Shown here: positions 3,055 through 45,554 of the stretch, piece by piece
Layout of the letters: every line of letters begins with the position of its first letter
Numbering within the stretch: position 1 is the stretch's first letter
Notes under the pieces: model-generated
Told to the model about the DNA's origin: nothing
What the model saw: the letters and a program-made list of their open reading frames with translations, nothing else
The model's database searches: none
Made by a program: the position numbers and the translations under genes
Source of the DNA: an uncultured Megamonas sp.
GTDB taxonomy: Bacteria; Bacillota; Negativicutes; Selenomonadales; Selenomonadaceae
Strand: one strand, 5' to 3'
Length of the DNA stretch: 64,000 bases
Assembly: GCF_905197185.1 (NCBI RefSeq)
Contig: NZ_CAJJXW010000001.1

Positions 3055-5541
3055 ATGAATTTACAAGAAAAAATAATGGAATATATGCAAACTAAGGCTA
3101 AAAGACCGATGAGTCAAGAAGATTTATTATATGCTTTAGCTTTAGAAGCAGATGAAATAAGACAATTGCCAACTGCTATGGAAGAATTAGAGAAGAAAAA
3201 TTTACTCATTCAAAATAGAAGTGGTTTATTTGGTTTGCCAAAACATATGAATTTAGTTGTAGGTAAAATGAGCATCACGTCTAAAGGCTTTGGCTTTGTT
3301 ATTCCAGATAATGGATTAGAAGAAGGCAAAGCTAAAGTTGATGATATTTTCATTCCTGCTGGTATGTTAAATTCAGCGATGAATAATGATAAAGTATTAG
3401 TACGCATCACTACTGAAAGAAGTAATTTTTCTAAGCGTGAAGGTGAAGTAATTCGCATTTTAGAGCGTGCTAATAATAAAGTTGTAGGTACTTTTGAGAG
3501 CAGTAGAACTTTTGGTTTTGTAGTTCCAGATGATAATCGTTTAAATCAAGATATTTTTATTGAAGGTCGTAATTTTAATGGAGCAAAAGTGGGCATGAAA
3601 GTAGTGGCTGAAATCACTAAATGGCCTACGAAAAATCACAGTCCAGAAGGTAAGATTGTAGAAGTTTTGGGGAAAATAGGTGCTCCTGGTGTAGATATTT
3701 TATCTGTAATGCGTCAATATGATTTGGCAGAGCAATTTCCTGTAGATGTACAAGAAGAAGCTAAACAAATTGAACAAGTACCTAGTAAAGCAGAATGTAA
3801 TAAACGTAAAGATAGACGCCATTTACAAATAGTAACTATTGATGGTGAAGATGCTAAGGACTTAGATGATGGTGTTTATGCTGAAAAATTGCCAAATGGT
3901 AATTTTTTCTTAGGTGTGTATATTGCTGATGTCAGTCATTATGTAAAAGCTTTTTCACCTTTAGATAAAGAAGCTTATAATCGTGGTACAAGTGTATATT
4001 TGGCGGATAGAGTTATTCCTATGTTACCTGTAGAATTATCTAATGGTATCTGTAGTTTAAATGCTGGTGAAGATAGACTTTCCATGTGTGCGGAAATGGA
4101 AATCGACGCAAATGGTACTGTGATCAAATACGATATTTTCCCTACAGTTATTCATGTATATCGCCGATTAACTTATAAGTTAGTAAATCGTATCTTAGTA
4201 GAAAAAGATACGCAAATGGTTGAAGATAACCAAGATATTTTGCCATTGTTGCATAATTTAGAAGCAGTATATAAAGTTTTAAATAAACGACGTCAAATGC
4301 GTGGCTCTATAGATTTTGATATTCCTGAAGTTAAAGTAAAATTAAATGCTAAAGGTCAAGCTGTAGGCCTTGTAAAACGTGAACATGGCTTAGGTGAATC
4401 TATCATTGAAGAATGTATGTTAGTGGCGAATGAAACCGTAGCTGAACATATGGCTAGAAAAGAATTGCCTTTTATTTATCGTGTGCATGAAGAACCTGTA
4501 GAAGATAAAATGTTTGCCTTAAATGAATTATTGGCTAATTTTAATTTACATCTTAATCGCAATACTGAAGGTGAAATTGAGCCTAGAGCTATTCAAGAAG
4601 TATTAAATTCTATAAAAGGAAAACCAGAAGAAAAAATCATTTCTGCTGTAGCTTTACGTAGTATGCAACAAGCTAAGTATAAGGCAGAAAATTTGGGGCA
4701 TTTTGGTTTGGCTGCTAAATATTATACGCATTTTACTTCACCGATTAGACGTTATCCAGATTTAATCGTTCATCGTTTATTAAAAGAACAATTAAGTGGA
4801 AAAATGACAGCAGAACGTCAAGAAAAGTTAAAATCAAGATTACCTGAAGTAGCTACACATACATCTAAACAAGAACGAGTGGCTACAGAAGCGGAACGCG
4901 AGACAACTTTAATTAAAGAAATCGAATATATGGCTCGTTTCTTGGGTGATGAATTCCATGGTATTATCAGTGGTGTTACAGCTTTTGGCATTTTTGTAGA
5001 ATTAGATAATGGTGTCGAAGGTCTAGTTCATGTATCTACTATGGTAAATGATTATTATGAATATGTAGAAAAAGAATATGCTCTTGTTGGTGAAATGACT
5101 AATTTCAGATATCGTTTAGGTGATGAAGTAACTGTTATTTTGACAAGGGCAAGTATAAAAGAGCGTGCTATTGATTTTATCTTAAAAGATAATGGTAAAA
5201 TGCCTCTTGTTTTTGAAGATGATATAATCGCTAAACCATTTTTTACAGAAATTAATAATAATGTAAAAAAAGATTTAAAGATAAAAGAAAATTTTGCTAG
5301 AGAAAATAAAGCTAGTAAAAAGCAAGCGGATAAATATAAACGCAAAAAACGTAAAGATAAAGAGCATAAAAAAATAGAGGAGAAAAAGAAAAAATCTATT
5401 ACTAAGATAGAAAGCAAGAAAAAAGATAACAAGAAAAGTGCTTTTTATGATAAAATCTATACGAAGAAATCTCGCAAAAAAAGTGGATCTAAAGAACGTG
5501 TGCGAGATAGAGTTTCAAAAGGCAAACGCCGTAAGAAATAA
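3055..5541 (+). CDS. rnr: ribonuclease R with a Lys-rich C-terminal tail
   Basis: 828 aa. RNB-domain motifs (DGEDAKDLDDGV, cold-shock/S1 regions) and a conserved smpB neighbour. Confidence 0.92.
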   Translation: MNLQEKIMEYMQTKAKRPMSQEDLLYALALEADEIRQLPTAMEELEKKNLLIQNRSGLFGLPKHMNLVVGKMSITSKGFGFVIPDNGLEEGKAKVDDIFIPAGMLNSAMNNDKVLVRITTERSNFSKREGEVIRILERANNKVVGTFESSRTFGFVVPDDNRLNQDIFIEGRNFNGAKVGMKVVAEITKWPTKNHSPEGKIVEVLGKIGAPGVDILSVMRQYDLAEQFPVDVQEEAKQIEQVPSKAECNKRKDRRHLQIVTIDGEDAKDLDDGVYAEKLPNGNFFLGVYIADVSHYVKAFSPLDKEAYNRGTSVYLADRVIPMLPVELSNGICSLNAGEDRLSMCAEMEIDANGTVIKYDIFPTVIHVYRRLTYKLVNRILVEKDTQMVEDNQDILPLLHNLEAVYKVLNKRRQMRGSIDFDIPEVKVKLNAKGQAVGLVKREHGLGESIIEECMLVANETVAEHMARKELPFIYRVHEEPVEDKMFALNELLANFNLHLNRNTEGEIEPRAIQEVLNSIKGKPEEKIISAVALRSMQQAKYKAENLGHFGLAAKYYTHFTSPIRRYPDLIVHRLLKEQLSGKMTAERQEKLKSRLPEVATHTSKQERVATEAERETTLIKEIEYMARFLGDEFHGIISGVTAFGIFVELDNGVEGLVHVSTMVNDYYEYVEKEYALVGEMTNFRYRLGDEVTVILTRASIKERAIDFILKDNGKMPLVFEDDIIAKPFFTEINNNVKKDLKIKENFARENKASKKQADKYKRKKRKDKEHKKIEEKKKKSITKIESKKKDNKKSAFYDKIYTKKSRKKSGSKERVRDRVSKGKRRKK

Positions 5542-5571
5542 ATATTTTAGATAATAAGTAAGGTTGATTTT

Positions 5572-16670: not shown

Positions 16671-16984
16671 GAAAATCCCTCACTTATATAAAATATTATC
16701 TACAATTATAAATTTATATTCATAATTATATCATCTATAAAAACAATAAGCTATGAGAAAAATAATACACAAAAGTATCTTGTAAATAGATTTTTTATGG
16801 CTTAAATTTTTAATAATTTTTATAAACCCGCCATTTAATTAACAACTTTACAATATTTATACAAAATCTATAAGGTTTTAAAATTTTTAGCAATAATAAA
16901 ATTAATGAAATTTATCATAATATAATTGACAAAGATTATCACTAATGATAACATAAAACATAAGTAATAAAATATAGATAGAAT

Positions 16985-17237
16985 AGGTGTCTATATAGAC
17001 TTAATAGGGAATTCGGTACAAGCCGAAGCGGTCCTGCCACTGTAAAGACGAGCAATTTCACAATTATGTCACTGAGATAAATTATCTTCTTGGGAAGGCG
17101 TGAATAGTTATGACTCTGAGCCAGGAGAACTGCCTATTTAATAATCACCGTTATTACCTGCGAGCGATGGGAAGGCGATTTTGTACGAATATAAATTTGT
17201 ATAATACTGCCTAATTCTGCGGAATTAGGTTTTTTTA
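16985..17237 (+). promoter_or_regulatory. cobalamin (B12) riboswitch with intrinsic terminator
   Basis: Conserved elements AGGGAA ... GGT ... GCCACTG (B12 box at 17036-17042) are present. Followed by the terminator hairpin cctaattc-tgcg-gaattagg-T7 (17210-17237). Lies upstream of the ABC transporter operon. Confidence 0.75.
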
Positions 17238-25701: not shown

Positions 25702-25749
25702 CGATTATTGACAAATAATAATTTATAAATTATATTGTATATATAAATT

Positions 25750-25888
25750 AATAACAGGGAGCTAGTAAACTGGCTGAGAGGAAGTTGTGAACTTCGACCT
25801 ATGACCTGATTTGGATAATGCCAACGTAGGATAATATTTGTAGTTTAATGATAATTATAAGAGATGGCATTATGTTATCTCTTTTTTA
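25750..25888 (+). promoter_or_regulatory. TPP (thiamine pyrophosphate) riboswitch with intrinsic terminator
   Basis: CTGAGA ... ACCTGATTTGGATAATGCCAACGTAGGA core. Followed by the terminator aagagatggcattatgttatctc-T6 (25859-25888). Lies upstream of thiSFGH. Confidence 0.75.
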
Positions 25889-32265: not shown

Positions 32266-34272
32266 ATGGCACACCGCAAGACTAAACAACATACTGTAAA
32301 TGTTGTAAAAGCTCAATTTTGTGCACCAGAAAACATATCATATTTGGATTTATTTGAAGGATTTAACGAATTATATACTATAAATATAGCTACTAATATA
32401 GATTTTTTAGCTAATCTATTAGAACTATTTACAAAAGTAGAGATTATTTTTGGTAATCTCGCACTTGTACCATCTACTTTGGAAAATACATTTGCTATGC
32501 AAAGAAATACTTTGCAAGAATTATATAAAACGGAACAATATGCTAATTTTAAAGAAAAATATGATCAAGGTAATTTAAATATATATTTAGCAGATGCTCC
32601 CTTATACCCTGAAAAATTATTTTGCTTGAAAAATACGCAGACAGGAGCAACTAGAGTAATCTTAGGCAGTAACAATTTTGACCAATTACCAGCTAACAGT
32701 GACCGCAATCAAGCTTTAGTTTATTTTGATGATGAAAGTGCTTTCAATTATTATATGAACATATATAATGATTTCAAACAGAATAATAGCGAAATAGTAA
32801 ATGAAAATGCATGGGAAATAACATATGAAGATACTCAAATGCTCGAAATTTTACCTATTTTGCATAAAGCTAAACAAGATAGCGAACATATCTATCCAGC
32901 AGTTAGTAAGACAACTATCGTAAAAACAGCAGAATATATCTCAGATATCGAGCGTTTAGCAAAAGATTTTGTAGATATTCCTAAGGCAGACCGTAAAGGA
33001 CAGGCTAAAATCACAAACGATAAGATAGATACTATTAAACGTAAAACATTAGAAAATATTCAAGTTCGCCGTGCTAAATTTGAAAAATTTATGCCACAAT
33101 TAGTTATTGAACCAGAACGCAATCGTGCTTTTTATAATGAACGTGAATTTAATTTCCGTCCTTATCGCAGTGATGTAAAACGTGATGCTGAAATTTATTT
33201 ACAATATATGGAAGGTTTTAATACAGCAGTACCAGCTAAAAATATTGAACCTTTAAAATTTGAGTATTTTAAATTGATGTCATGGTGCTTTTTATCTCCA
33301 TTTTTAGCACGTGTGCGTACTACAATTAGAGAAGCTACTGTAACTGATGAAGTATTTACATATCCGATAGTAGCTTTATTATGTGGTCAATCAAATGCAG
33401 GAAAAACAATCTATGCTTCTTTATTGATGAAAATGATGACTGATTCTGCTTTATATAAAGCTTTTGGTCAAAATAACTTCACGAAAACACGCATTGATTC
33501 ACTTCTCTGCGATATAAAAGGTTTACCTATATTAATCGATGATATCACTCAAACTCAATTTACTAATAATAGTGGAAATATCATCAAACAAGAAGAACGC
33601 ATCATTCGTGAAACTAAACCAGAAAATTTAAATTATTATTCAGCTATTTTACTTACAGCTAATAAAGATTTAAATAGCTTGAAAAATGAGCTTACTAAAC
33701 GTATGGTCGTTTTCCATGTAAATGCCAGCTGGAACAACGAATTTACACGTCAGCAAAAAAGTCCATGCTCTGAATTAATTCAAAAAATGAGAAACAATTT
33801 TTATAGTGCATATCTGGCAAAAATCATTCCTCATATTAATTTGTATTTAAGCCAAATCAATGATTTAGGCTCTAGTAGCATAGATTTATATAATATAAGC
33901 TCTGAAGTAATAATATCTATCTTTAAAGAATGTGGTTTAGATATTCCAAGCTATATGAGACCTCTTACTATGAAAGATTATTTTGATAGTAAGGCTGTAA
34001 ATGAAATCATGATAAAATTCTTCCAAAGACAATATCGTCTAAATCGTGATTTCTTTGAAGTTAACAAGAAAAATAATCAATTGATCTTTGAAGATAAAAG
34101 TTTATCTTCTGTAGGTAAGATGACTCCTATGCGTATTGCTGAATCACTCCCACCTGAATTGGAAGCAGATGTAGTCGGTGATAAAGTGATTATGCGATTG
34201 GATAGTGCAACTAAATTCTTTAGCACAGAATTCAAAGAACAAGGTCTTTTAAATAAATTATTTGGCAGATAA
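32266..34272 (+). CDS. mobile-element replication-initiator-like protein: degenerate PLD-like N-domain plus SF3-helicase-like P-loop NTPase
   Basis: Walker A VALLCGQSNAGKT, Walker B LPILIDDIT about 45 aa later, and motif C SAILLTANKD about 40 aa after that. The spacing and order fit superfamily-3 helicases. The N-terminal RVILGSNNFD resembles a PLD GSxN motif but lacks the HxK residues. Converges on the integrase gene. Confidence 0.6.
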   Translation: MAHRKTKQHTVNVVKAQFCAPENISYLDLFEGFNELYTINIATNIDFLANLLELFTKVEIIFGNLALVPSTLENTFAMQRNTLQELYKTEQYANFKEKYDQGNLNIYLADAPLYPEKLFCLKNTQTGATRVILGSNNFDQLPANSDRNQALVYFDDESAFNYYMNIYNDFKQNNSEIVNENAWEITYEDTQMLEILPILHKAKQDSEHIYPAVSKTTIVKTAEYISDIERLAKDFVDIPKADRKGQAKITNDKIDTIKRKTLENIQVRRAKFEKFMPQLVIEPERNRAFYNEREFNFRPYRSDVKRDAEIYLQYMEGFNTAVPAKNIEPLKFEYFKLMSWCFLSPFLARVRTTIREATVTDEVFTYPIVALLCGQSNAGKTIYASLLMKMMTDSALYKAFGQNNFTKTRIDSLLCDIKGLPILIDDITQTQFTNNSGNIIKQEERIIRETKPENLNYYSAILLTANKDLNSLKNELTKRMVVFHVNASWNNEFTRQQKSPCSELIQKMRNNFYSAYLAKIIPHINLYLSQINDLGSSSIDLYNISSEVIISIFKECGLDIPSYMRPLTMKDYFDSKAVNEIMIKFFQRQYRLNRDFFEVNKKNNQLIFEDKSLSSVGKMTPMRIAESLPPELEADVVGDKVIMRLDSATKFFSTEFKEQGLLNKLFGR

Positions 34273-34285
34273 ATTAATAATAAAT

Positions 34286-34322
34286 AAAAAAAGCACACAT
34301 TTATTTGTGTGCCTTTTTTTTA
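34286..34322. terminator. bidirectional terminator between the rep-like gene and the integrase gene
   Basis: aaaaaaagcacaca-tttatt-tgtgtgc-ttttttt. Confidence 0.8.
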
Positions 34323-35341
34323 TCTTCATTTACATTTTCATTTAAATTAATGCCAGTAGTATAACGTTTATCCATTTTATTGTAGATGTGAGCATATTTA
34401 CTAGTTATATTGACATTACTGTGACGCAAAACTTGTTTTACTATTTGTAAATCTTTTGTATCTTTATAAAGTAGAGTGCCACATGTATGGCGGAGCATAT
34501 GGCAGCTTATATCTTCTTTTTTTAATCCTGCCTTAGTCAGCCATTTATCCACATTATAACGAATACCTCGTCTATCCATTCTTTTTCCTTTTACTTGATT
34601 AGTCAAAGTTGTAAATACTGGCTCTCCAAATTCATCAATAAAGGCAAAATCAAATGGTCGTATTTTTAAATATTCTTGTAATAAAATTAAAACATCATCA
34701 CGAGGATAAATAAAATCATTATGCCCTTTACCATGAATATATATTGTCTTCATCTCCCAATTTATATCATTGATAGACATGCGATGAACTTCCACTGTTC
34801 TCAATCCTTCTAATGCCATAAGCATAATGATGAGTTTATCTCTTAAATATTCAATATGTTTTTCATCATAATTAGGTATAATATTTAATAAATTTCGTAG
34901 TTGTTCTAATGTAAGAAATTTCATAGGAGAGATTTCACTTGCTTCATGTATTTTTACACCTACATCTTTAGCAGGGCTATTTTCTATTAATTTTAATTTT
35001 ACAGCAATATTATAGAATTGTTTTATCGCATTTAGCTTTACCTTAATACTACCTTTTTTCATATTTATTTTTATTAAAAAATCTCGATAGTACATAAATT
35101 GATATTCTGTTATCTTTAATGGATGCACTTTATTTGTTAAACACCATTTTATATAACTATCAATAGCAGAACAATAACTTCTTAAAGTGTCTTCTGATGG
35201 TTCACCTTGAGAAAGATATCGTTTCAATAAACTTTTATAATTCAATAATAAAGTATTTTCATTTATCTCTTCTTGTCGTAAATAATCTTTTACTAAAAAA
35301 TCATTATCATCTATTTTTATTAAATTTGCCAAAAATCTCAC
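34301..35341 (-). CDS. tyrosine-type site-specific recombinase/integrase
   Basis: C-terminal HMLRHTCGT ... LRHSNVNITSKYAHI (R-H-R-Y catalytic tetrad context). N-terminal SAM-like core-binding domain. Confidence 0.88.
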   Translation of the reverse strand: MRFLANLIKIDDNDFLVKDYLRQEEINENTLLLNYKSLLKRYLSQGEPSEDTLRSYCSAIDSYIKWCLTNKVHPLKITEYQFMYYRDFLIKINMKKGSIKVKLNAIKQFYNIAVKLKLIENSPAKDVGVKIHEASEISPMKFLTLEQLRNLLNIIPNYDEKHIEYLRDKLIIMLMALEGLRTVEVHRMSINDINWEMKTIYIHGKGHNDFIYPRDDVLILLQEYLKIRPFDFAFIDEFGEPVFTTLTNQVKGKRMDRRGIRYNVDKWLTKAGLKKEDISCHMLRHTCGTLLYKDTKDLQIVKQVLRHSNVNITSKYAHIYNKMDKRYTTGINLNENVNEDKKKAHK

Positions 35342-36401: not shown

Positions 36402-36654
36402 ATAAGTTATTTTTTTATAGATTTTTCAATTTCATCAAGAATTTTATTATTAGCACTATCTATAAAAGCTAGAAATCCTGTATTTCTAGCTCTTACCCAT
36501 TCACTAGTAGTTGTAGAGATTTCTTTTTCTTCTTCGTCAAGTCTCTAACTTCTTTTTCAAGCTCATCAAAATTTAAATTTTTATTTGTTTCATCAGCTAA
36601 TAAAGAACGAATTTCTTCTTTTCTTTGTAAAATTTCTTCTAATCGTTTATTCAT
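36402..36654 (-). pseudogene. frameshifted small phage-like ORF (frameshift in an A-rich tract)
   Basis: Minus-strand ORF MNKRLEEILQRKEEIRSLLADETNKNLNFDELEKEVRDLTKKKK. It stops shortly after the aagaagaaaaagaaa tract. A one-base frame change would continue it as ...EISTTTSEWVRARNTGFLAFIDSANNKILDEIEKSIKK, an ORF with no start codon of its own. Confidence 0.45.
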
Positions 36655-36785
36655 TGTATTTTCCTTTCTGAATATCTTAAAAATGGGTACAAAAAAGCAC
36701 CTTCTTAGGTGCTTAACTAATAAATTTATGTTATACTATTTTCGTTACTCAACTCCAATCTGGTAACAGAGAGGAGGTGCATATA

Positions 36786-36875
36786 ATGAACTTCACTGAT
36801 ATTGTTGTGCTTATTATGGTAAATGTAATCTCTTACTTCATTTACAAATGGATAGATAAGCACTTTTTTGAGTAA
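36786..36875 (+). CDS. Fst/Ldr-like type I toxin peptide (29 aa)
   Basis: MNFTDIVVLIMVNVISYFIYKWIDKHFFE is a single TM helix with a charged tail and a YxxYKW aromatic motif. Strong RBS GAGAGGAGGTG. Sits in par-like architecture with direct repeats, a bidirectional terminator and a convergent promoter. Confidence 0.6.
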   Translation: MNFTDIVVLIMVNVISYFIYKWIDKHFFE

Positions 36876-36909
36876 CTATCCTAACGCTCTAGCATTAGTG
36901 CAATAATGT

Positions 36910-36945
36910 AAAAACCCTTAGGAACTACCACTTCCTAAGGGTTTT
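36910..36945. terminator. bidirectional rho-independent terminator shared by the toxin mRNA and the antisense RNA
   Basis: aaaaa-cccttagg-aactaccactt-cctaaggg-tttt. Confidence 0.75.
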
Positions 36946-36973
36946 GTGCATTATAATGAACTTCACTGTTTCT
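36910..36973 (-). ncRNA. candidate antisense antitoxin sRNA (RNA II-like, about 64 nt)
   Basis: Minus-strand sigma-A-like promoter TTGCAA (37002-37007), 16-nt spacer, TATACT (36980-36985). The transcript would contain the complement of the 16-20 nt repeat ataatgaacttcactg (copy 2 at 36953-36968) that overlaps the toxin start codon (copy 1 at 36783-36798). It ends at the shared terminator. Confidence 0.5.
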
Positions 36974-37119
36974 ATAATTAGTATAGCATATCTTGTGATT
37001 TTTGCAATATAAAACACAAAATCCTTTTATAAATACGTCATATACTGTGCTATAAACTTTTCTAAAAATTCACTAGCAGACATCATTGGATTGGAATACG
37101 AACTTAATAAATAATTCAA

Positions 37120-38402: not shown

Positions 38403-39746
38403 TTAATCATTTACTTTGCGGAAAGCTAAAGAATATCCTAAAACAACTGCAAAACATACTACAGGTAAATAAAATGCTGTTCTAATAGCTGCTTCGGTTG
38501 CGGAGAAACCACTAACCATGAAGCTTAATGCACTAGAGTCAACTAACCAACCCATGATAGGAGTGATTATTGCACCACCTAAGATAGCCATGATTAAACC
38601 TGCTGCACCAAATTTTACTTCAGCACCGAGACCACGAAGAGCAATACCATAAATTGTTGGGAACATTAAGCTCATGCAACCAGAAATTGCAATTAAGCAA
38701 TATACAGATACAGATGTTGGTAAATAAATTGTACCGAGGCAACATAAAATACCAGCTAAAGCGAAGACTGCCATCATTTTTGCAGGAACAAAATATTTCA
38801 TCAAATATGTGCAAAGCCATCTGCAAGCAATAAATAATACCATTGCATAGATATAGTAATTAACAGCATCGGCTTCAATGATATTTTTTGTAGCCATAAT
38901 ATATTTAATAGTCCATGTCCAAACTGCGATTTGTACACCTACATAGAAGAACTGAGTGATAACACCCCAATAATAACGAGGATTTTGTAATAATTTACCA
39001 AATGCTTGAGGAACAGTCATTGCTACACGACCATCCTTATCATTTAATTTACTTCTAAAGAAAATAACCCAAATAATAAATGCGATTAAGATTAAGCCAA
39101 CATAAGGAACACATACCCAGAAAAGTTCTGTATCTCTGATAGCGGAAAGTTCAGCAGGAGACATAGCTAATCTATCATCTAAATCAGCAGGATTCAAGTT
39201 TGCTAAGATAATATATTTTGCTAAGAATAATCCAGCCATTGAACCTACAGGATTGAATGCTTGAGCAAAATTCAATCTGCGAACGCTTGTTTCTTGAGCA
39301 CCCAAAGATAATACAAATGGATTACATGTTGTTTCTAATACAGATAAACCACCAGCTAAGATAAAAATAGATACTAAGAATAAATTATAACTTTGCAAAA
39401 TAGCAGCTGGAATATAACCAAATGCTCCTATCATATAAAAACCAAGACCAACTAAAACGCCAACACGATAGGAATATTTTTTAATGATAAATGCTGCTGG
39501 CATAGCAAGTACAGCATATGCACCATAAAAAGCTACCTGTACTAAAGAAGAATCAACAGCTTTAATCATAAAGATCTTAGCAAATGAAGGAACCAAGTTA
39601 TCAGTCATATTGTTTAATAAACCCCAAAGAGCAAAACAAGATACTAATAAGAAAAAATATATTCTATATTGAGCAGGAACTACTGGTATACTATTGCTAT
39701 TATTCGCAATATTCTTTTGACTTAATGTATTTGCGTTATTTTCCAT
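38403..39746 (-). CDS. fucP: L-fucose:H+ symporter permease (MFS)
   Basis: 12-TM MFS protein with a FucP-like N-terminus, sitting in the fuc operon. Confidence 0.8.
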   Translation of the reverse strand: MENNANTLSQKNIANNSNSIPVVPAQYRIYFFLLVSCFALWGLLNNMTDNLVPSFAKIFMIKAVDSSLVQVAFYGAYAVLAMPAAFIIKKYSYRVGVLVGLGFYMIGAFGYIPAAILQSYNLFLVSIFILAGGLSVLETTCNPFVLSLGAQETSVRRLNFAQAFNPVGSMAGLFLAKYIILANLNPADLDDRLAMSPAELSAIRDTELFWVCVPYVGLILIAFIIWVIFFRSKLNDKDGRVAMTVPQAFGKLLQNPRYYWGVITQFFYVGVQIAVWTWTIKYIMATKNIIEADAVNYYIYAMVLFIACRWLCTYLMKYFVPAKMMAVFALAGILCCLGTIYLPTSVSVYCLIAISGCMSLMFPTIYGIALRGLGAEVKFGAAGLIMAILGGAIITPIMGWLVDSSALSFMVSGFSATEAAIRTAFYLPVVCFAVVLGYSLAFRKVND

Positions 39747-39791
39747 GATAAAACCTCTCTTAAATATTTATACACGAACAAAATCACATAA

Positions 39792-40232
39792 TTAATCCAC
39801 TACAACACCTTTTTGTAGCATGATATTAGCGTAAAGAGCCTTTTCACTTGTAGCGATAATAGCATAAGCTGTTTTGGCTTCTTCGTAGAAAGCAAATCTT
39901 TCAATATTACCGATGGCATTTGCTCCACGTTCATCATGTTTAGCTACGATTTCTTTGTAAGTGTCCCAAATAGGTGTTTCTACTGTATCACCTGGCATTA
40001 CTTCCATGAGATTAACAGGTTTATCAACATAAATATCTAATGGAAAAACTTTTAAAATTGCATCTAATAATTCAGGTACACCATGTCCATCACATCTGAT
40101 TACTATTGCATTTTTTCCCATGGACTCTGCTGGGAAATTTCCATCAGCGATAACAATTCTATCGCTATGACCCATTTCACAAAGTACTTTTAATAATTCA
40201 GGTGATAATATTTTAGGAATATTTTTTAACAT
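39792..40232 (-). CDS. fucU: L-fucose mutarotase (RbsD/FucU family)
   Basis: 146 aa with the NIPKILSPELLKVLCEMGHSD RbsD/FucU signature. Confidence 0.82.
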   Translation of the reverse strand: MLKNIPKILSPELLKVLCEMGHSDRIVIADGNFPAESMGKNAIVIRCDGHGVPELLDAILKVFPLDIYVDKPVNLMEVMPGDTVETPIWDTYKEIVAKHDERGANAIGNIERFAFYEEAKTAYAIIATSEKALYANIMLQKGVVVD

Positions 40233-41701
40233 AACAAATTCTCCTTAACATTTTTATATATTTCGTCCCAATTTTCATCTTTTTGGGGTTCATAAACAGT
40301 AACATTTTCAGAATTAGCAACTATTCTGCGTGCTTCTTTAATATCTTTTATTTCACCTAATGCCATTAACTGCAACGCAATATTTCCCATTACTGTAGCT
40401 TCTACAGGGCCTGCCACTACTTTTCTACCACAAACGTTAGCTGTTAATTGACATAATAGTTTACTTTGGATACCGCCACCAATGATGTTTAATGTATCAT
40501 ATTTTTTGCCAGTAGCTATTTCAATCTGTTCTAAAGCAAATCTGTATTTAACAGCTAAGCTCTGATCAATACAGCGAACAATTTCTGCTTCATTTTGAGG
40601 AACATATTGACCTGTCCGTTTACAATATTCTTGAATTCGTTTTGGAATATTACCTGCTGAAACAAATTCTTCATTATCTGTATCAATAAAGGAATTTATC
40701 ATACCCACTTTACTAGCCATCTGTTCAAGTTCACCAAAACCATATTCTTTACCTTCTCTAATCCATTGACGACGACTTTCTTGAATGAGCCATAGTCCTA
40801 TAATATTTTTCAAGAAAGAAGTTTTATTATCTGCTCCGCCTTCATTAGTAATATTCAAACTTGCAGAAGTTTCATTAATTATTGGTGTTTTCAATTCTGT
40901 TCCTAATAAGGACCATGTACCACAAGATAAGAATATAAAATCATCTTCTTGAGTTGGCACTGCCACCATAGCTGATTGAGTATCATGTCCTGCTACAGCA
41001 ATTATATCTATTTCATTTATACCTAACTCTTCACTAATTTGTTTGCTCAACTTACCAATCTTCGTTCCTGGTTGAACAATTTTAGTGAATATATTTTTTG
41101 GTAAATCCAAATTTTCAATAATTTCTGAAGACCATTTTTTATTTTTTGCATCTAATAACTGAGTTGTAGAAGCTATTGTATATTCTGTACATTTCTCATT
41201 AGATAAGAAATAATTTAATAAATCCGGCATCAGTAATAAAGTATCAGCTTTTTCTAATAATTCTGGTTGATTTTCTTTTATAGCCATCAATTGAAAAAGA
41301 GTATTTAATTCCATGAACTGATTACCAGTAATGCTATAAATAGTATCTTTATCCAATTTAGCAAAAACTTTATCCATCATACCTTTTGTTCTAGCATCTC
41401 TATAATGAACAGGATTTTCTAAAAGTTTGCCATCTTTATTTAAAAGACCAAAATCAACGCCCCATGTATCTATACCTAGACTTTTTATTTCACCCTCTTG
41501 TTTTGCTTTTATTAAACCAGTTTTTATATCATGAAATAATCTTAATACGTCCCAATACATAGTATCTAATAATATTACAGGATCATTTGTAAAGCGATGT
41601 ATCTCTTTTAATGAAATTTTTTTGCCATCAAAAGTTCCTATAATAGCTCTACCACTAGATGCACCAAAGTCTAAAGCTAATACCTTAACGTCCTTTCCCA
41701 T
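40226..41701 (-). CDS. fucK: FGGY-family sugar kinase (L-fuculokinase/rhamnulokinase-like)
   Basis: LALDFGASSGR N-terminal FGGY motif. AGGAGTG RBS before the internal ATG at 41701. Sits in the operon with fucI and fucA. Confidence 0.78.
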   Translation of the reverse strand: MGKDVKVLALDFGASSGRAIIGTFDGKKISLKEIHRFTNDPVILLDTMYWDVLRLFHDIKTGLIKAKQEGEIKSLGIDTWGVDFGLLNKDGKLLENPVHYRDARTKGMMDKVFAKLDKDTIYSITGNQFMELNTLFQLMAIKENQPELLEKADTLLLMPDLLNYFLSNEKCTEYTIASTTQLLDAKNKKWSSEIIENLDLPKNIFTKIVQPGTKIGKLSKQISEELGINEIDIIAVAGHDTQSAMVAVPTQEDDFIFLSCGTWSLLGTELKTPIINETSASLNITNEGGADNKTSFLKNIIGLWLIQESRRQWIREGKEYGFGELEQMASKVGMINSFIDTDNEEFVSAGNIPKRIQEYCKRTGQYVPQNEAEIVRCIDQSLAVKYRFALEQIEIATGKKYDTLNIIGGGIQSKLLCQLTANVCGRKVVAGPVEATVMGNIALQLMALGEIKDIKEARRIVANSENVTVYEPQKDENWDEIYKNVKENLLC

Positions 41702-41947
41702 ATTCTCACTCCTCATTGTTAACTTTTAACCTTATTATATCAACACATAATTATTAAATCTTGTTATATTATCACTAAAAATAGAACTATATTCACATTT
41801 AATAAATAATTTGAAAATTTTATATAAAATCATAAAACAAAATAAACTGACAACAAAAATAAATTTAAAAATTTACTACCTATATCTTTAATTTTATTTT
41901 TCATAAAAAAATAGCCCAATAGTATATATTGGGCTATTCTATAAAAA

Positions 41948-42631
41948 TTAGTCTTCTTTATAATGTTTATAACCTGGGTGTCTGCCTTTTACGCCATAGT
42001 AGCTGCGTAAGTTGATGAGTTTATCAATATTTTCACGAGAAATTTCTTTTGGTCCACCTAAAAGATAAGCATTTAAGTTGATTTTAGCAAACAATTCTAA
42101 TGTTTCCATTTTATAATAAGCTTCCACCAAATTAGAACCAACAGTCAATGCACCGTGATTTTCTAATAATACAGCATCATGTTCTTGAATGTAAGGTGCA
42201 ATAGCTTCAGGTACCTCGTAAGTAGAAGGTGTTCCATAAGGGGTGATAGGAATAGAACCTAATGCTACTACTGTTTCAATCATATCATATCTATCTAAAG
42301 GTACATGAGCTACAGCAAAACCAGTAGCTGTTGGGGGATGTGCATGAAGCACTGCACCTACATCTTCACGATCAGCATAGCAACGCAAATGCATTTTGAT
42401 TTCAGAAGATGGTCTATAACCTTCATTTGCTTCTAAAATTTCACCTTGAACATTGATACGTACTAATTTTTCAGGAGTGATGAAACTTTTACTAATTCCT
42501 GTTGGTGTAGCAAGGAATGTGCCATCATCTAATTTTACAGTTATATTACCATCATTAGCAGCAACCCAACCTAATTGCCACATTTTATGACAAATATCGC
42601 ATATTTGATCTTTTATTTCTTCATAAGCCAT
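41948..42631 (-). CDS. fucA: L-fuculose-phosphate aldolase (class II aldolase)
   Basis: Class II aldolase/adducin fold motifs (HAHPP, GALTVG). GGAGGA RBS. Confidence 0.82.
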   Translation of the reverse strand: MAYEEIKDQICDICHKMWQLGWVAANDGNITVKLDDGTFLATPTGISKSFITPEKLVRINVQGEILEANEGYRPSSEIKMHLRCYADREDVGAVLHAHPPTATGFAVAHVPLDRYDMIETVVALGSIPITPYGTPSTYEVPEAIAPYIQEHDAVLLENHGALTVGSNLVEAYYKMETLELFAKINLNAYLLGGPKEISRENIDKLINLRSYYGVKGRHPGYKHYKED

Positions 42632-42668
42632 AAACAAGCTCCTCCAATTAATCTATATTATATTCTAA

Positions 42669-44462
42669 TTATTTATATAAAGGACCATAGTTTTTGCAAG
42701 CTCTATAGTCTTGACCTTCTTTATCCATACCGAAAGCATTCCAAGCAGCAGGACGGAAGATTTTATCTTCAGGAACGTTATGCATGCATACAGGAATTCT
42801 GAGCATAGAGCATAATGTAATGAGGTCTGCACCGATATGACCATAGCTGATAGCACCGTGATTTGCACCCCAGTTATTCATTACATCATAAGCAGATTTG
42901 AATGCACCTTCACCAGTTAAACGTGGAGCGAACCAAGTGCAAGGCCAAGTGTAGTCAGTACGTTTCCAGAGTTTATCAGATACTTCATCTGGTAATTTTA
43001 CAGTCCAACCTTCTGCAATCTGTAATACAGGGCCTAAGCCTTTTACAAGATTTAAACGAACCATAGTTACAGGCATTTCGCTATTTGTTAAGAAACGGGA
43101 GCTAAATCCGCCACCTCTGAAGTAACCATTATCAGCAGGGCACCATTCAGTTGCATCGAGGCAAGCTTTTTGATCTTTTTCAGTCATTTCCCAGAATGGT
43201 TTAATTACGCCATTACCATTTTCATCTTTTGCTTCACCACAAGCATCGATACAAGCAGCACCGGAGTTGATTAAGTGAATAAATCCTTTGGATTCTTTAG
43301 CAACGCCTTCTAATTCATAACCAGTAGCCTGTTTAACTGCTTCAAGGCTCCAGTATGTTCTAACGTCAGCGAAGATTTGTGCAGTATTTGTTAATAATTT
43401 ACCAAAGAGCATACCTACGCCATTTAATGTATCATTTTCTGTAGCAAGTACATATGGTTCTCTTGCACCATTCCAGTCAAAAGAAGAGTTCATCATTGCT
43501 TCTGGGAAGTCGCAGTTTGGATAAAAGTCTGTCCACTGTCTTTGACCTTGGAAACCACCAGCAATTGCATTGTGACCTAATTGTTCTTCTTCGCAACCTT
43601 CTGGTAAGTTTTTATTACCATTATAGAGGTCTTTAATGATACACATCATTTTTACAACAAATTCCCAAGCTTCTTCTTTTTCAGCGTCAGTTTTACGGCA
43701 GAAATCTGGGTTTTTGTCAAAGCCTTGTTTGCAGTTTTCTTTAGTCCATTTTAAAGCTTTTTCAAATTCTGCATGGTCATAAATGCCTTCTGTCATACGA
43801 CGGATAATTTCAACTTCATCTACAGATTCAACTCTCATGCCAAGATATTCTTCAAAAAATTCTGGGCTAATGATAGAACCTGCGATACCCATACAAATAG
43901 AACCAATCTGTAAGTAAGATTTACCTCTCATTGTAGCAACAGCTACAGCTGCACGACCAAATCTTAAAAGTTTTTCTTGAACATCTTCTGGAATTTCTGT
44001 AGCATCTGCATTTTGAACATCATGTCCATAAATACCGAAAGCTGGAAGACCTTTTTGTGCATGGCTTGCAAGTACAGAAGCAAGATATACAGCACCAGGA
44101 CGTTCAGTACCATTGAAGCCCCAAACACCTTTGATTGTTTTTGGATCCATATCCATTGTTTCAGAACCATAACACCAACAAGGAGTTACTGTTAAAGTAA
44201 TATCTACGCCTTCTTTTTTAAATTTTTCTGCACAAGCAGCACTTTCAGGTGCACGACCAATTGTTGTATCAGCAATAACTACTTTTACGGGTTCACCGTT
44301 AGAATATTTGAGGTTTTCTGTAAATAATTTAGCAGCAGCTTTTGCCATGCCCATAGTTTGTTCTTCTAAAGATTCTCTAACTTTTAAAACGCCTCTACGT
44401 CCATCAATTGTAGGGCGGATACCAATTACAGGATAATCTCCAATTAATCTATTTGTTGCCAT
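42669..44462 (-). CDS. fucI: L-fucose isomerase
   Basis: 597 aa with the [24 protein letters not shown]-terminus typical of FucI. AGGAGG RBS. Confidence 0.88.
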
Positions 44463-44675
44463 TATAAAATTCCTCCTAAGAAATCTTTTTGTATATATCT
44501 TTTTGTTTGTTGTTCACTTGATGATTAAATTATAGCAATTAAATATTAATAATACTTGTTATATTATCACTAAAAATATAACAATATTCACTTTTTAAAA
44601 ATTGTATGAAACTTTACATTTTTAGAAATATAAGTATAATAATAATATAAAATTTTATTTATTAGGAGAACAATT

Positions 44676-45554
44676 ATGAAACGCGATAGTTATAATGAAC
44701 AAAGAGAACGCGGTAATTTTTCATTTCCTGTAGAATATCATTATGTAACTAATCATCATCCACGCTACAATATGCCATATCATTGGCATATTCAATATGA
44801 AATAATTCGCGTATTAGAAGGTAAAATTGTAATTTCTATAGACGAAAATGAATATACGGCTAGTGCAGGAGATATAATTTTCATCACAGATGGTTGCGTT
44901 CATGGTGGAAAAGCTTTTTTAGAAAATACTATATATGAATGTATGGTTTTTGATAAAAAATTATTTGAAACGAATATAGGTGATCAAAATATTCTTCAAA
45001 ACTTCTTTGATCATCATCTTATTGTAAATAATTATTTTGATAATAAATATCCTGATATACATCAAGCTATATGGACTATATTTGATGCTTTAAAAAACAA
45101 GCTATTTGGTTATGAATACATTGTATTAGGTGGTTTATTTAATTTTTTAGGATTAATTTTAAAATACAAATTATATACTAAATCCTTTACAAATTTTATA
45201 AGTAGTAACCAAAAAAATATTCATAAATTAAAAAAAGCATTTCATTTAATTGCAACTTCTTATAATCAACCGCTTACTTTGGAAGATTTAGCCAATACTT
45301 CTGGTTTATCACCAAAATATTTCTGTCGATTTTTTCAAAGTATGACGAACAAAACACCTATAGCTTACTTAAATTATTATCGAATTGAATGTGCTTGCAC
45401 TAAATTAGTTAATGAAAGGGATTTATCAATCACAGATATAGCATATAGCTGTGGTTTTAATGATTTATCTTACTTTATAAAAACATTTCGTAAATATAAA
45501 AATACTACTCCCAATAAATATATGAAATCTTATTTTGAAATGACAAAAAAATAA
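44676..45554 (+). CDS. AraC-family transcriptional regulator (probable fuc operon regulator)
   Basis: N-terminal cupin and C-terminal AraC HTH (TDIAYSCGFNDLSYFIKTFRK). Divergent from fucI. Confidence 0.8.
   Translation: MKRDSYNEQRERGNFSFPVEYHYVTNHHPRYNMPYHWHIQYEIIRVLEGKIVISIDENEYTASAGDIIFITDGCVHGGKAFLENTIYECMVFDKKLFETNIGDQNILQNFFDHHLIVNNYFDNKYPDIHQAIWTIFDALKNKLFGYEYIVLGGLFNFLGLILKYKLYTKSFTNFISSNQKNIHKLKKAFHLIATSYNQPLTLEDLANTSGLSPKYFCRFFQSMTNKTPIAYLNYYRIECACTKLVNERDLSITDIAYSCGFNDLSYFIKTFRKYKNTTPNKYMKSYFEMTKK

Follow-up and report, generated by a model that had tools for sequence, protein, structure and literature searches.

A candidate par/Fst-type toxin-antitoxin cassette in a Megamonas prophage remnant

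Anatomy of the cassette and its predicted RNAs

Analysis of a 64,000-nt stretch of the genome of an uncultured Megamonas sp. (contig NZ_CAJJXW010000001.1; hereafter the window, to which positions refer unless another record is named) revealed at 36729-37007 a compact locus that is very probably a type I toxin-antitoxin (TA) cassette of the par/Fst type (the Fst/RNAII class), carried by a Megamonas prophage remnant. Exact matches of two of its encoded proteins, RecN (WP_296898052.1) and FucI (WP_296898036.1), assign the window to this organism, of the lineage Negativicutes, Selenomonadaceae. The anatomy of the cassette, the complementarity of its RNAs and the co-evolution of this complementarity, the constraint on the coding sequence, the conservation of promoters and helices, and the origin from a prophage were obtained in silico or by comparison with related loci. 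Two convergent RNAs are predicted, a toxin mRNA (RNA I) and an antitoxin small RNA (sRNA; RNA II), and the following features make up the locus:

36729-36737, plus strand: RNA I promoter, an extended -10 element TGTTATACT with a weak -35 element, GTGCTT, at 36709-36714 (read from the sequence)
about 36745-36949, plus strand: predicted RNA I, about 205 nt, with ends inferred from the promoter and terminator
36753-36776, plus strand: 5' stem-loop pairing CUCC with GGAG of the Shine-Dalgarno (SD) sequence; inner stem UCUG/CAGA and loop GUAA, in both the minimum-free-energy and centroid folds
36771-36777, plus strand: SD sequence GAGGAGG, 8 nt before the ATG (read from the sequence)
36776-36798, plus strand: repeat copy 1 (GTGCAT-ATAATGAACTTCACTG), running from the 3' end of the SD through codon 5; predicted RNA II target
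36786 (ATG) to 36875 (TAA), plus strand: predicted toxin open reading frame (ORF) of 29 aa, MNFTDIVVLIMVNVISYFIYKWIDKHFFE (read from the sequence)
36848-36881, plus strand: stop-codon helix pairing GGAUAG (36848-36853, the Trp-Ile codons) with CUAUCC (36876-36881, in the 3' untranslated region, UTR) and enclosing the last codons and the stop
36911-36945, both strands: bidirectional intrinsic terminator with perfect 14-bp arms (36911-36924 and 36932-36945) and a 7-nt loop, CTACCAC (from the sequence)
36946-36968, plus strand: repeat copy 2 (GTGCATTATAATGAACTTCACTG), whose complement is the 5' tail of RNA II
start near 36973, end at about 36907, minus strand: predicted RNA II, about 67 nt, with ends inferred from the promoter and terminator
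37007-36980, minus strand: RNA II promoter found by a promoter scan, TTGCAA (-35, 37007-37002), 16 nt, TG-n-TATACT (-10, 36985-36980)

The predicted peptide has a single transmembrane (TM) segment at about residues 6-20 (mean hydropathy 2.4), followed by K21-W22 and the tail IDKHFFE. In the Fst/Ldr superfamily, a Trp that separates the TM helix from a charged tail is the signature (PMC7472228); here this place is taken by Trp22, between the hydrophobic helix and the charged C-terminus.

The start codon of this ORF lies within one of two exact copies of a 17-nt sequence, TATAATGAACTTCACTG (36782-36798 and 36952-36968), of which no third copy occurs in the window even with two mismatches allowed. 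In shuffled sequence, 0.04 matches are expected by chance at the same two-mismatch tolerance, and two copies occurred in 0 of 100 shuffles. The repeat grows to 23 nt via an upstream GTGCAT (36776-36781 and 36946-36951) with a 1-nt indel. The terminator between the two copies is flanked by A5 on one side and T4 on the other, and its arms start with AAAA and finish with TTTT. A simple terminator scan of the window did not list it, which we attribute to pairing of the U-tract with the A-tract, as in bidirectional terminators. The convergent promoter beyond the terminator matches the consensus at 9 of 12 positions and carries TG before the -10 element.

An earlier note, made from the letters of this DNA, had placed here a 29-aa ORF with a strong ribosome-binding site, a sequence of 16-20 nt (16 nt by its coordinates) repeated at the start codon and beyond a strong bidirectional terminator, and an opposite-strand promoter TTGCAA-16 nt-TATACT driving a convergent RNA of about 64 nt. 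Direct reading of the sequence recovers each of these elements, the terminator as a perfect 14-bp stem with A and T arms; two small points were revised, the exact repeat being 17 nt long and not 16, and the RNA I promoter being an extended -10 element with a poor -35 element. The duplex envisaged between the repeat copies is also predicted: the RNA II tail pairs with RNA I at 36776-36799 with an energy of -32.7 kcal/mol, stronger than with all 500 shuffled tails (-11.0 +/- 2.7 kcal/mol, minimum -24.1).

RNA I is predicted to fold at -56.8 kcal/mol (z = -5.2) with its SD paired, and RNA II to consist of the terminator hairpin and a largely unstructured 5' tail that is unpaired in the centroid fold. 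Since the bidirectional terminator is shared, the 3' ends of the two RNAs are complementary as well, with an overlap of 43 bp and -78.5 kcal/mol. The RNA I fold further contains a 13-bp long-range helix between 36799-36811 (codons 5-9) and 36897-36909, in the 3'UTR just before the terminator.

Relatives and family-wide conservation

Relatives were collected using a degenerate DNA pattern for Y[FY][IV][CY]KW[LI]D in which AAA was fixed for Lys, so that the set is biased towards AAA-Lys. The pattern matched 79 viral contigs, in about 72 of which the motif lies at the end of an ORF of 25-35 aa, 1-7 codons ahead of the stop, and a narrower pattern yielded 12 genome loci, all 12 with the motif ending a short ORF. 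The genome loci belong to an uncultured Megamonas metagenome-assembled genome (MAG) with two copies (L085, with an identical peptide, and L095, an 82%-identical paralogue), Candidatus Megamonas gallistercoris, Phascolarctobacterium, Erysipelotrichaceae, Massilimicrobiota (two copies in one locus), Butyribacter, Lachnospiraceae (two loci), an uncultured Clostridia MAG, and an uncultured Firmicutes MAG with a copy resembling that of the Veillonella plasmid pVJL1. In total, more than 80 relatives were found in viral contigs, Megamonas, pVJL1, Lachnospiraceae and Streptococcus, and the layout is common to nearly all of them.

The pVJL1 copy was the only match in a blastn search of the locus against plasmids (Veillonella sp. 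OK1, NC_019271.1; 70.5% identity) and has no annotation beneath it. On this 4.8-kb plasmid, the unannotated cassette (L001:2523-2760, about 800-1060 of the plasmid record) encodes a 28-aa peptide with a TTG start, MNLLLSFLLSIMASIAAYYICKWIDRHF, has the terminator in the same position as in the window, and carries a repeat pair of its own, GTGCTAATTTTGAATTTACTATTATCTTTC and GTGCTAATTTGAATTAGCTATTATCTTTC. The Streptococcus satellite phages Javan542 and Javan544 contain a homologue, annotated as hypothetical. Searching cultured-phage records with blastn gave no match to the locus, and tblastn of the peptide against plasmids returned chance matches only, inside a PTS EIIC gene (E 0.8). The expectation of the earlier note that gene callers miss such small loci agrees with the unannotated state of the published pVJL1 copy and with the absence of the exact 32-aa form of the ORF (from an upstream GTG) among 153 billion gene calls, a look-up that covered the 32-aa form, the 29-aa form being too short.

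Among 40 distinct family sequences, K, W and D are invariant in the peptide alignment. When the 14 TM codons that precede the search motif were compared pairwise, the differences per site amounted to 0.50, 0.22 and 0.53 at codon positions 1, 2 and 3, respectively, i.e. the second positions are 2.3-2.4 times less variable than the first and third ones. Such a constraint is expected of a sequence coding for a conserved hydrophobic helix, unlike a purely structural RNA, and indicates, from sequence comparison, that the ORF is translated. The TM-plus-charged-tail layout ascribed to the peptide by the earlier note stands, whereas YxxYKW, taken there as a general Fst/Ldr motif, is a motif of this sub-family, and only its Trp is a signature of the superfamily.

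The repeats show the same layout across the family and diverge in sequence. In most relatives, a 12-16-bp GC-rich hairpin with A and T arms follows the stop codon by 20-50 nt. The repeat is found just past this hairpin in 46 of 46 distinct loci and covers the start codon in 38 of them; gapped repeat scores in these 46 loci are at least 21 (median 34), and shuffled sequences give a median of 14 (95th percentile 19). Between loci the repeat sequence varies, but the two copies within each locus stay matched. Predicted duplexes between the tail and the start region have a median of -39.0 kcal/mol for cognate partners vs -16.0 for non-cognate ones, and the cognate partner is the best one in 43 of 44 loci, the sole exception being, as we assume, a near-identical sister copy. 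For the Megamonas paralogues, cross-pairing amounts to about -12 to -20 kcal/mol vs -30 to -39 for same-type pairs; RNA IIs of the paralogues (e.g. L095) are thus predicted by the duplex model not to cross-react with the window-type toxin mRNA.

Promoters and RNA structures are likewise preserved. The minus-strand promoters of relatives occupy the same position with a median of 10 of 12 consensus matches (7 in shuffles), and in the Megamonas paralogues L095, L094 and L068 the RNA II promoter hexamers are kept despite an overall identity of 73-82%. An extended -10 element is found on the plus strand at the same position, with TG in 76% of 49 loci. The predicted lengths are 176-238 nt for RNA I (median 205) and 63-93 nt for RNA II (median 74), in agreement with the sizes known for pAD1 par, fst-Sm/srSm and, as regards the antisense RNA, the pneumococcal system. 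The 5' hairpin and the terminator were tested per sequence, because indels shift their register in the MAFFT alignment and RNAalifold failed to recover the former and most of the latter from it; the stop-codon helix was tested on that alignment as a named structure. In 43 distinct 5'UTRs, the mean probability of the SD being paired is 0.88 vs 0.65 when the upstream part is shuffled; the central SD base pair is A-U in 32 loci and G-C in 6 loci (SD GGGGG instead of GGAGG, with the partner U replaced by C), a compensatory change. In the stop-codon helix, 91% of cells are paired family-wide (12-64% in slid controls), and 17 cells are changed on both sides vs 4.5 +/- 1.8 in shuffles, none of 500 reaching 17. 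As judged from these sequences, the layout is conserved with covariation in dozens of relatives, the convergent arrangement with a shared terminator recurring in about 49 of them. RNAalifold also reported a family-wide covarying helix in the coding region (alignment columns 84-95 with 126-136) that competes with the stop-codon helix for GGAUAG; these helices, together with the 13-bp long-range helix of the window's RNA I, may represent alternative conformers controlling translation or stability.

Several relatives are of individual interest. L085 (1719-2093) is 94.6% identical in nucleotides to window positions 36658-37042 and encodes the identical peptide; a deletion of about 12 nt, between tttatgtt and gttactcaa, removes the extended -10 box of RNA I and leaves the RNA II promoter intact, which from the sequence looks like toxin silencing through loss of the promoter. 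The L095 paralogue from the same MAG (1271-1356 and 1677-1883) lies about 320 bp from a tRNA gene; its RNA II is predicted to pair with the window-type toxin mRNA at -12.5 kcal/mol, vs about -31 to -32 for each cognate pair. On the Massilimicrobiota timonensis chromosome (L089), two cassettes (77-274 and 5360-5557) are located 5.3 kb apart; in the stretches shown, their promoter and 5'UTR are identical, and their start-region repeats and peptides have diverged. This fits the pattern of lineage-specific duplication with a divergent interaction site that was described by Fozo 2010 (PMC2887945).

Prophage setting

The cassette is surrounded by phage debris, comprising the features listed below and IS30-like insertion sequence (IS) fragments, and is itself intact:

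34301-35341: integrase (window translations)
36654-36518, minus strand: N-terminal fragment of a phage major-capsid gene (translation; 98% identity to viral contig L074, which has an intact capsid gene)
36714-36686, minus strand: intrinsic terminator preceding the capsid fragment (terminator scan)
37160-37033, minus strand: fragment of a phage portal gene (comparison with L074)

Positions 36518-37042 are 98% identical to L074 (IMGVR_UViG_3300029820_000018). In that contig (8401-9648), the terminase and portal genes lie upstream of the cassette, which is placed between the genes for a prohead protease (Peptidase_S78) and the major capsid protein and is separated from the latter gene by an intrinsic terminator. 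RNA II runs in the direction of the late genes, to which the toxin strand is antisense. Compared to L074, the window misses about 1.5 kb, corresponding to the remainder of the portal gene plus the gene for the prohead protease, and at the junction the two aligned blocks overlap by 10 bp (37033-37042). By this comparison, the cassette is the best-preserved piece of a decayed Megamonas prophage. In other viral contigs, members of the family adjoin genes for cI-like repressors, portal or tail proteins, HicB, or a NERD nuclease, and judging from these positions the family behaves as a mobile moron. Prophage-borne, stabilising type I TAs are an established theme in C. difficile and B. subtilis (PMC6563280).

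Comparison with known systems and alternative explanations

The prototype of the class is the par locus of the E. faecalis plasmid pAD1, with RNAs of about 210 and 65 nt. Comparison of the window cassette with par revealed several common features: (i) a convergent toxin mRNA of about 200 nt and an sRNA of about 65 nt (predicted in the window) share a bidirectional terminator, (ii) the sRNA stays clear of the ORF, and repeats encode its complementarity to the translation initiation region outside the overlap, (iii) a 5' stem-loop, predicted in the window, sequesters the SD, and (iv) the toxin is a single-TM peptide about 30 aa long, in which a small-xxx-small position is aligned and the Trp/Val position is followed by an acidic residue (PMC7472228). 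The par arrangement proposed by the earlier note is upheld by the convergent RNAs, the shared terminator, the complementarity outside the overlap, and the dozens of relatives; the distinct DRa and DRb repeats that it invoked are replaced by one interrupted repeat.

By sequence, the closest characterised relatives are the pneumococcal Fst-A and Fst-B (D39 SPV_2132/2448/2450 with srf-07/27/28). The Rfam model RF02442 (SpF66_sRNA, Streptococcus; gathering score 42 bits) aligns in full length with plus-strand positions 36751-36957 at 49.2 bits (E 4e-10), only slightly above the threshold (49 bits vs 262 for a true streptococcal copy); among the relatives, pVJL1 scores 46.0, L004 46.6, and L090 44.4. 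The consensus of the model translates to MSLILELVLTIIADVIAGIILYFVCKWLDGKE, which shares the C-terminal motif with the window peptide (...YFIYKWID...) and contains DxxxG. Because this translation reads as such a peptide, SpF66 probably corresponds to the pneumococcal fst-A/B loci. The window cassette and the pneumococcal loci have in common Y[FY][IV][CY]KW[LI]D, the 5' hairpin, the stop-codon helix, which is also contained in the Rfam model, and the terminator layout of that model; they differ in DxxxG and a G-K-[KE] tail in the pneumococcal peptides vs LxxxN and a KHFFE tail in the window peptide. The DxxxG pneumococcal clade of the Fst/Ldr superfamily was described by Weaver 2020 (PMC7472228), and three such loci are included in the D39 annotation (PMC6212727). 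Fozo 2010 had already assigned pneumococcal and Clostridium bolteae sequences to Ldr/Fst, and reported toxicity of pneumococcal Fst-B in E. coli together with an antisense RNA of 65-75 nt (PMC2887945).

Two further systems are instructive. The fst-Sm/srSm locus of S. mutans (Koyanagi and Levesque 2013) is similarly chromosomal, formerly unannotated and situated in a small intergenic region. The DRI/DRII repeats of that locus overlap the start codon, its terminator is bidirectional, and its two RNAs, of about 200 and 70 nt, as well as its toxicity were shown experimentally (PMC3543317). It differs from the window locus in its two tandem repeats and in the canonical APUU(A/V)GUU motif, which the window locus lacks. 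The antitoxins of the prophage-borne type I systems of C. difficile are known to overlap the toxin transcripts directly, in place of par-type repeat pairing. The toxins of C. difficile prophages (NF047374; CD0956.2/RCd10) resemble the window peptide in being small, hydrophobic, prophage-borne, and proposed stabilisers (PMC6563280), but they are mostly longer (34-59 aa) and have Lys-rich tails.

By analogy with pAD1 par, fst-Sm/srSm and pneumococcal Fst-B, both RNAs would be made and the peptide would be toxic; the same relatives suggest a lower stability of RNA II than of RNA I and a role of the cassette in stabilising a mobile element. In the proposed mechanism, the extended -10 promoter would direct synthesis of an RNA I of about 205 nt that encodes the 29-aa single-pass membrane peptide and keeps its SD locked inside the 5' stem-loop, and the stronger convergent promoter would produce the roughly 67-nt RNA II. 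Via the repeat, the free 5' tail of this sRNA would pair with the SD-proximal, start-codon and first-codon region of RNA I in a duplex of 23 bp with one bulge, blocking translation initiation. If RNA II is lost or reduced, the peptide would be made and the cell would be damaged or arrested.

A number of observations weigh against the assignment to the par/Fst type. The YUNR U-turn in the terminator loop is the first-contact site in pAD1 par; by inspection, YUNR is absent from the loops of the window cassette (CUACCAC in RNA I and GUGGUAG in RNA II), although in our view this motif does not define the family. The single interrupted 23-nt repeat differs from the distinct DRa and DRb of pAD1, and the RNA I promoter has a poor -35 element. 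The C-terminal tail is short and weakly charged (3-4 charged residues and two Phe), unlike the acidic tail of pAD1 Fst. At the aligned positions, the window peptide has L-I-M-V-N (LxxxN) and lacks the (P/D/S/T)xxxG(C) motif of the TM helix. The majority of the superfamily carries (P/D/S/T)xxxG, and pAD1 Fst, with PxxxG, requires both the Pro and the Gly for toxicity. The Megamonas clade is the exception within the family as well: SxxxG or SxxxS prevails among the relatives, and DxxxG is found in those from streptococci. A Val occupies the place of the Trp in pAD1 Fst, a substitution in the prototype noted by Weaver (PMC7472228). The two systems also differ in their carriers, a plasmid for pAD1 and a prophage in a diderm Negativicute here.

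Searches against curated models weigh in the same direction. There is no significant sequence match between the window peptide and pAD1 Fst, and the window peptide has no match at E <= 10 to Pfam PF13955 (Fst_toxin) and PF13940 (Ldr_toxin) or NCBIfam NF033608, and nothing meaningful in Pfam, NCBIfam or PHROGs as a whole. Four of the 40 family peptides reach at most 19.7 bits on NF033608 (type_I_tox_Fst; cutoff 26), and the SpF66 peptide matches PF13955 with E 0.025. Weak matches to NF047374 (CD_typeI_toxin) were obtained for 27 of the 40 (best E 4e-4; listed scores 14-18 bits, cutoff 60) and none for the window peptide. A search of the PDB with the family profile found neither Fst nor PepA1, only a chance transporter match. 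Direct hhalign comparison with PepA1 (4B19) and Fst (2KV5), whose sequences were verified against these entries, gave in-register alignments with probabilities of just 31% and 9%; at these low probabilities, S of the family falls on P and G/S/N on G of PxxxG, and its Trp falls on the PepA1 Trp and the Fst Val. As the signature is present but the motif and model matches fail, we classify the locus as par-like in its architecture and Fst/Ldr-like in its signature, and place it outside the curated Fst hidden Markov model families. Finally, the degraded state of the host element means that the cassette could be a relic, an explanation considered below.

Three mechanisms of other kinds were ruled out. 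An attenuator or riboswitch does not fit the lack of a downstream plus-strand gene and the convergent promoter beyond the terminator. A hok/sok- or ldr/rdl-type TA, in which the antisense RNA is encoded opposite the 5' leader of the toxin mRNA, a leader ORF is present and activation depends on 3' processing, does not fit the location of the antisense promoter, 3' of the ORF and beyond the terminator, and the lack of a leader ORF upstream. A holin as the primary function was rejected given that the matches of relatives are far below threshold and no endolysin gene is adjacent.

Among explanations that accept the cassette as such, it is rather unlikely that it is mainly a phage moron, acting in superinfection exclusion, abortive infection, or control of lysis or the life cycle, and not a classical addiction module. 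In an intact phage, where the toxin gene is antisense to the late operon, late read-through would then supply extra antitoxin, and the toxin would be set free once prophage transcription is lost. The location in L074, between the protease and capsid genes, with RNA II co-directional with the late genes and a terminator before the capsid gene, is consistent with such a role, as are the abundance of the family in viral contigs at varied positions and the prophage-borne type I TAs known in C. difficile and B. subtilis (PMC6563280). Weak resemblance of one relative to the Pfam LydA holin and of another to a PHROG holin family points the same way, but both matches are far below threshold and neither involves the window peptide. 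The family is, however, also found on the small plasmid pVJL1, where plasmid maintenance is the simpler reading, and the window locus persists in a remnant unable to produce phage.

A related proposal, which we hold to be unlikely, is that the Megamonas clade forms a functionally distinct branch, here in a diderm Firmicute, of a large and essentially unannotated prophage-moron Fst-like family ('YYICKWLD' peptides), situated antisense within the phage late operon, coupled to late transcription and with a membrane Asn replacing small-xxx-small. If this were true, late transcription, besides RNA II, would set the toxin level and tie the module to the phage life cycle (retention, exclusion, abortive infection), and the membrane-embedded Asn in place of the essential small-xxx-small motif would imply a different helix association or target.

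We consider it very unlikely that the locus is an inactive relic that decays with the prophage and is no longer expressed or toxic. Its neighbours, truncated capsid and portal genes and IS30-like fragments, would suit a relic, as would the weak -35 element and a few substitutions that distinguish its 3'UTR hairpin from that of the phage, and the sister copy L085, which has lost the -10 box of RNA I, demonstrates that such decay happens. However, the peptide is identical to that of the L074 phage copy, the cassette is 98% identical in nucleotides, and the 3'UTR substitutions retain the predicted long-range pairing, as judged by folding and inspection. Furthermore, the promoters, SD, ORF, repeats (17/17 identical) and terminator are intact while the flanking genes are destroyed, a pattern that an active addiction module would produce.

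There is next to no probability that the locus is a non-coding sRNA pair, or a chance or IS-derived repeat, without a functional peptide: although Rfam labels RF02442 merely 'Streptococcus sRNA SpF66' and the 32-aa form is unrecorded by gene callers, the ORF stays open across taxa with the same C-terminal motif and hydrophobic core and constrained second codon positions, it has a strong SD at the correct spacing, and the 17-mer occurs twice in 64 kb against the 0.04 expected. An origin of the repeat as a remnant of an IS terminal repeat, a doubt that the earlier note had raised itself, is excluded, the repeat being direct, internal to the cassette, away from IS ends, and locus-specific in every relative.

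Taken as a par/Fst-type cassette, the locus is fairly ordinary of its class and does not overturn current understanding, but it provides a clean example of a class missed by gene callers and curated protein models. We regard as mildly new the presence in Negativicutes, the size of the unannotated prophage-borne 'YYICKWLD' family, the LxxxN variant, the position inside a phage late operon, and the failure of the Pfam and NCBIfam models on these peptides, no scanned member of which reaches a curated cutoff. Par-type (3'-convergent, repeat-mediated) regulation would thereby be extended to Negativicutes, namely Megamonas, Phascolarctobacterium and Veillonella; no prior report of it was found in the literature searched, the coverage of which was incomplete. 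The combination of Y[FY][IV][CY]KW[LI]D, a bidirectional terminator and a start-codon repeat offers a specific signature for annotating gut and oral Firmicutes, phages and plasmids. The plasmid pVJL1 has been used for building Veillonella cloning vectors, and its cassette is a candidate plasmid-stability determinant. The dozens of co-varying toxin and antitoxin repeat pairs represent ready-made orthogonal antisense pairs.

Other features of the window were noted in passing. A fucose utilisation cluster (permease, FucU-like protein, kinase, aldolase, FucI, and an AraC-type regulator) occupies 38403-45554, 1.5 kb from the cassette; the functions were read from translations, and FucI alone among them was identified by an exact protein match. 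The pneumococcal fst-A/B loci are flanked by the fucose regulator fcsR (Fozo 2010, PMC2887945), and chromosomal Fst loci have been linked with sugar metabolism genes (Weaver 2020, PMC7472228). The proximity in the window is probably a coincidence, because prophage debris separates the cluster from the cassette. Adjoining the integrase, a 668-aa ORF (32266-34272) has no Pfam match at E <= 1e-3. Two riboswitches were also found, a cobalamin riboswitch at 16968-17151 (99 bits) and a thiamine pyrophosphate (TPP) riboswitch at 25745-25850 (59 bits), the latter upstream of thiF/thiG/thiH-like genes, as read from their translations.

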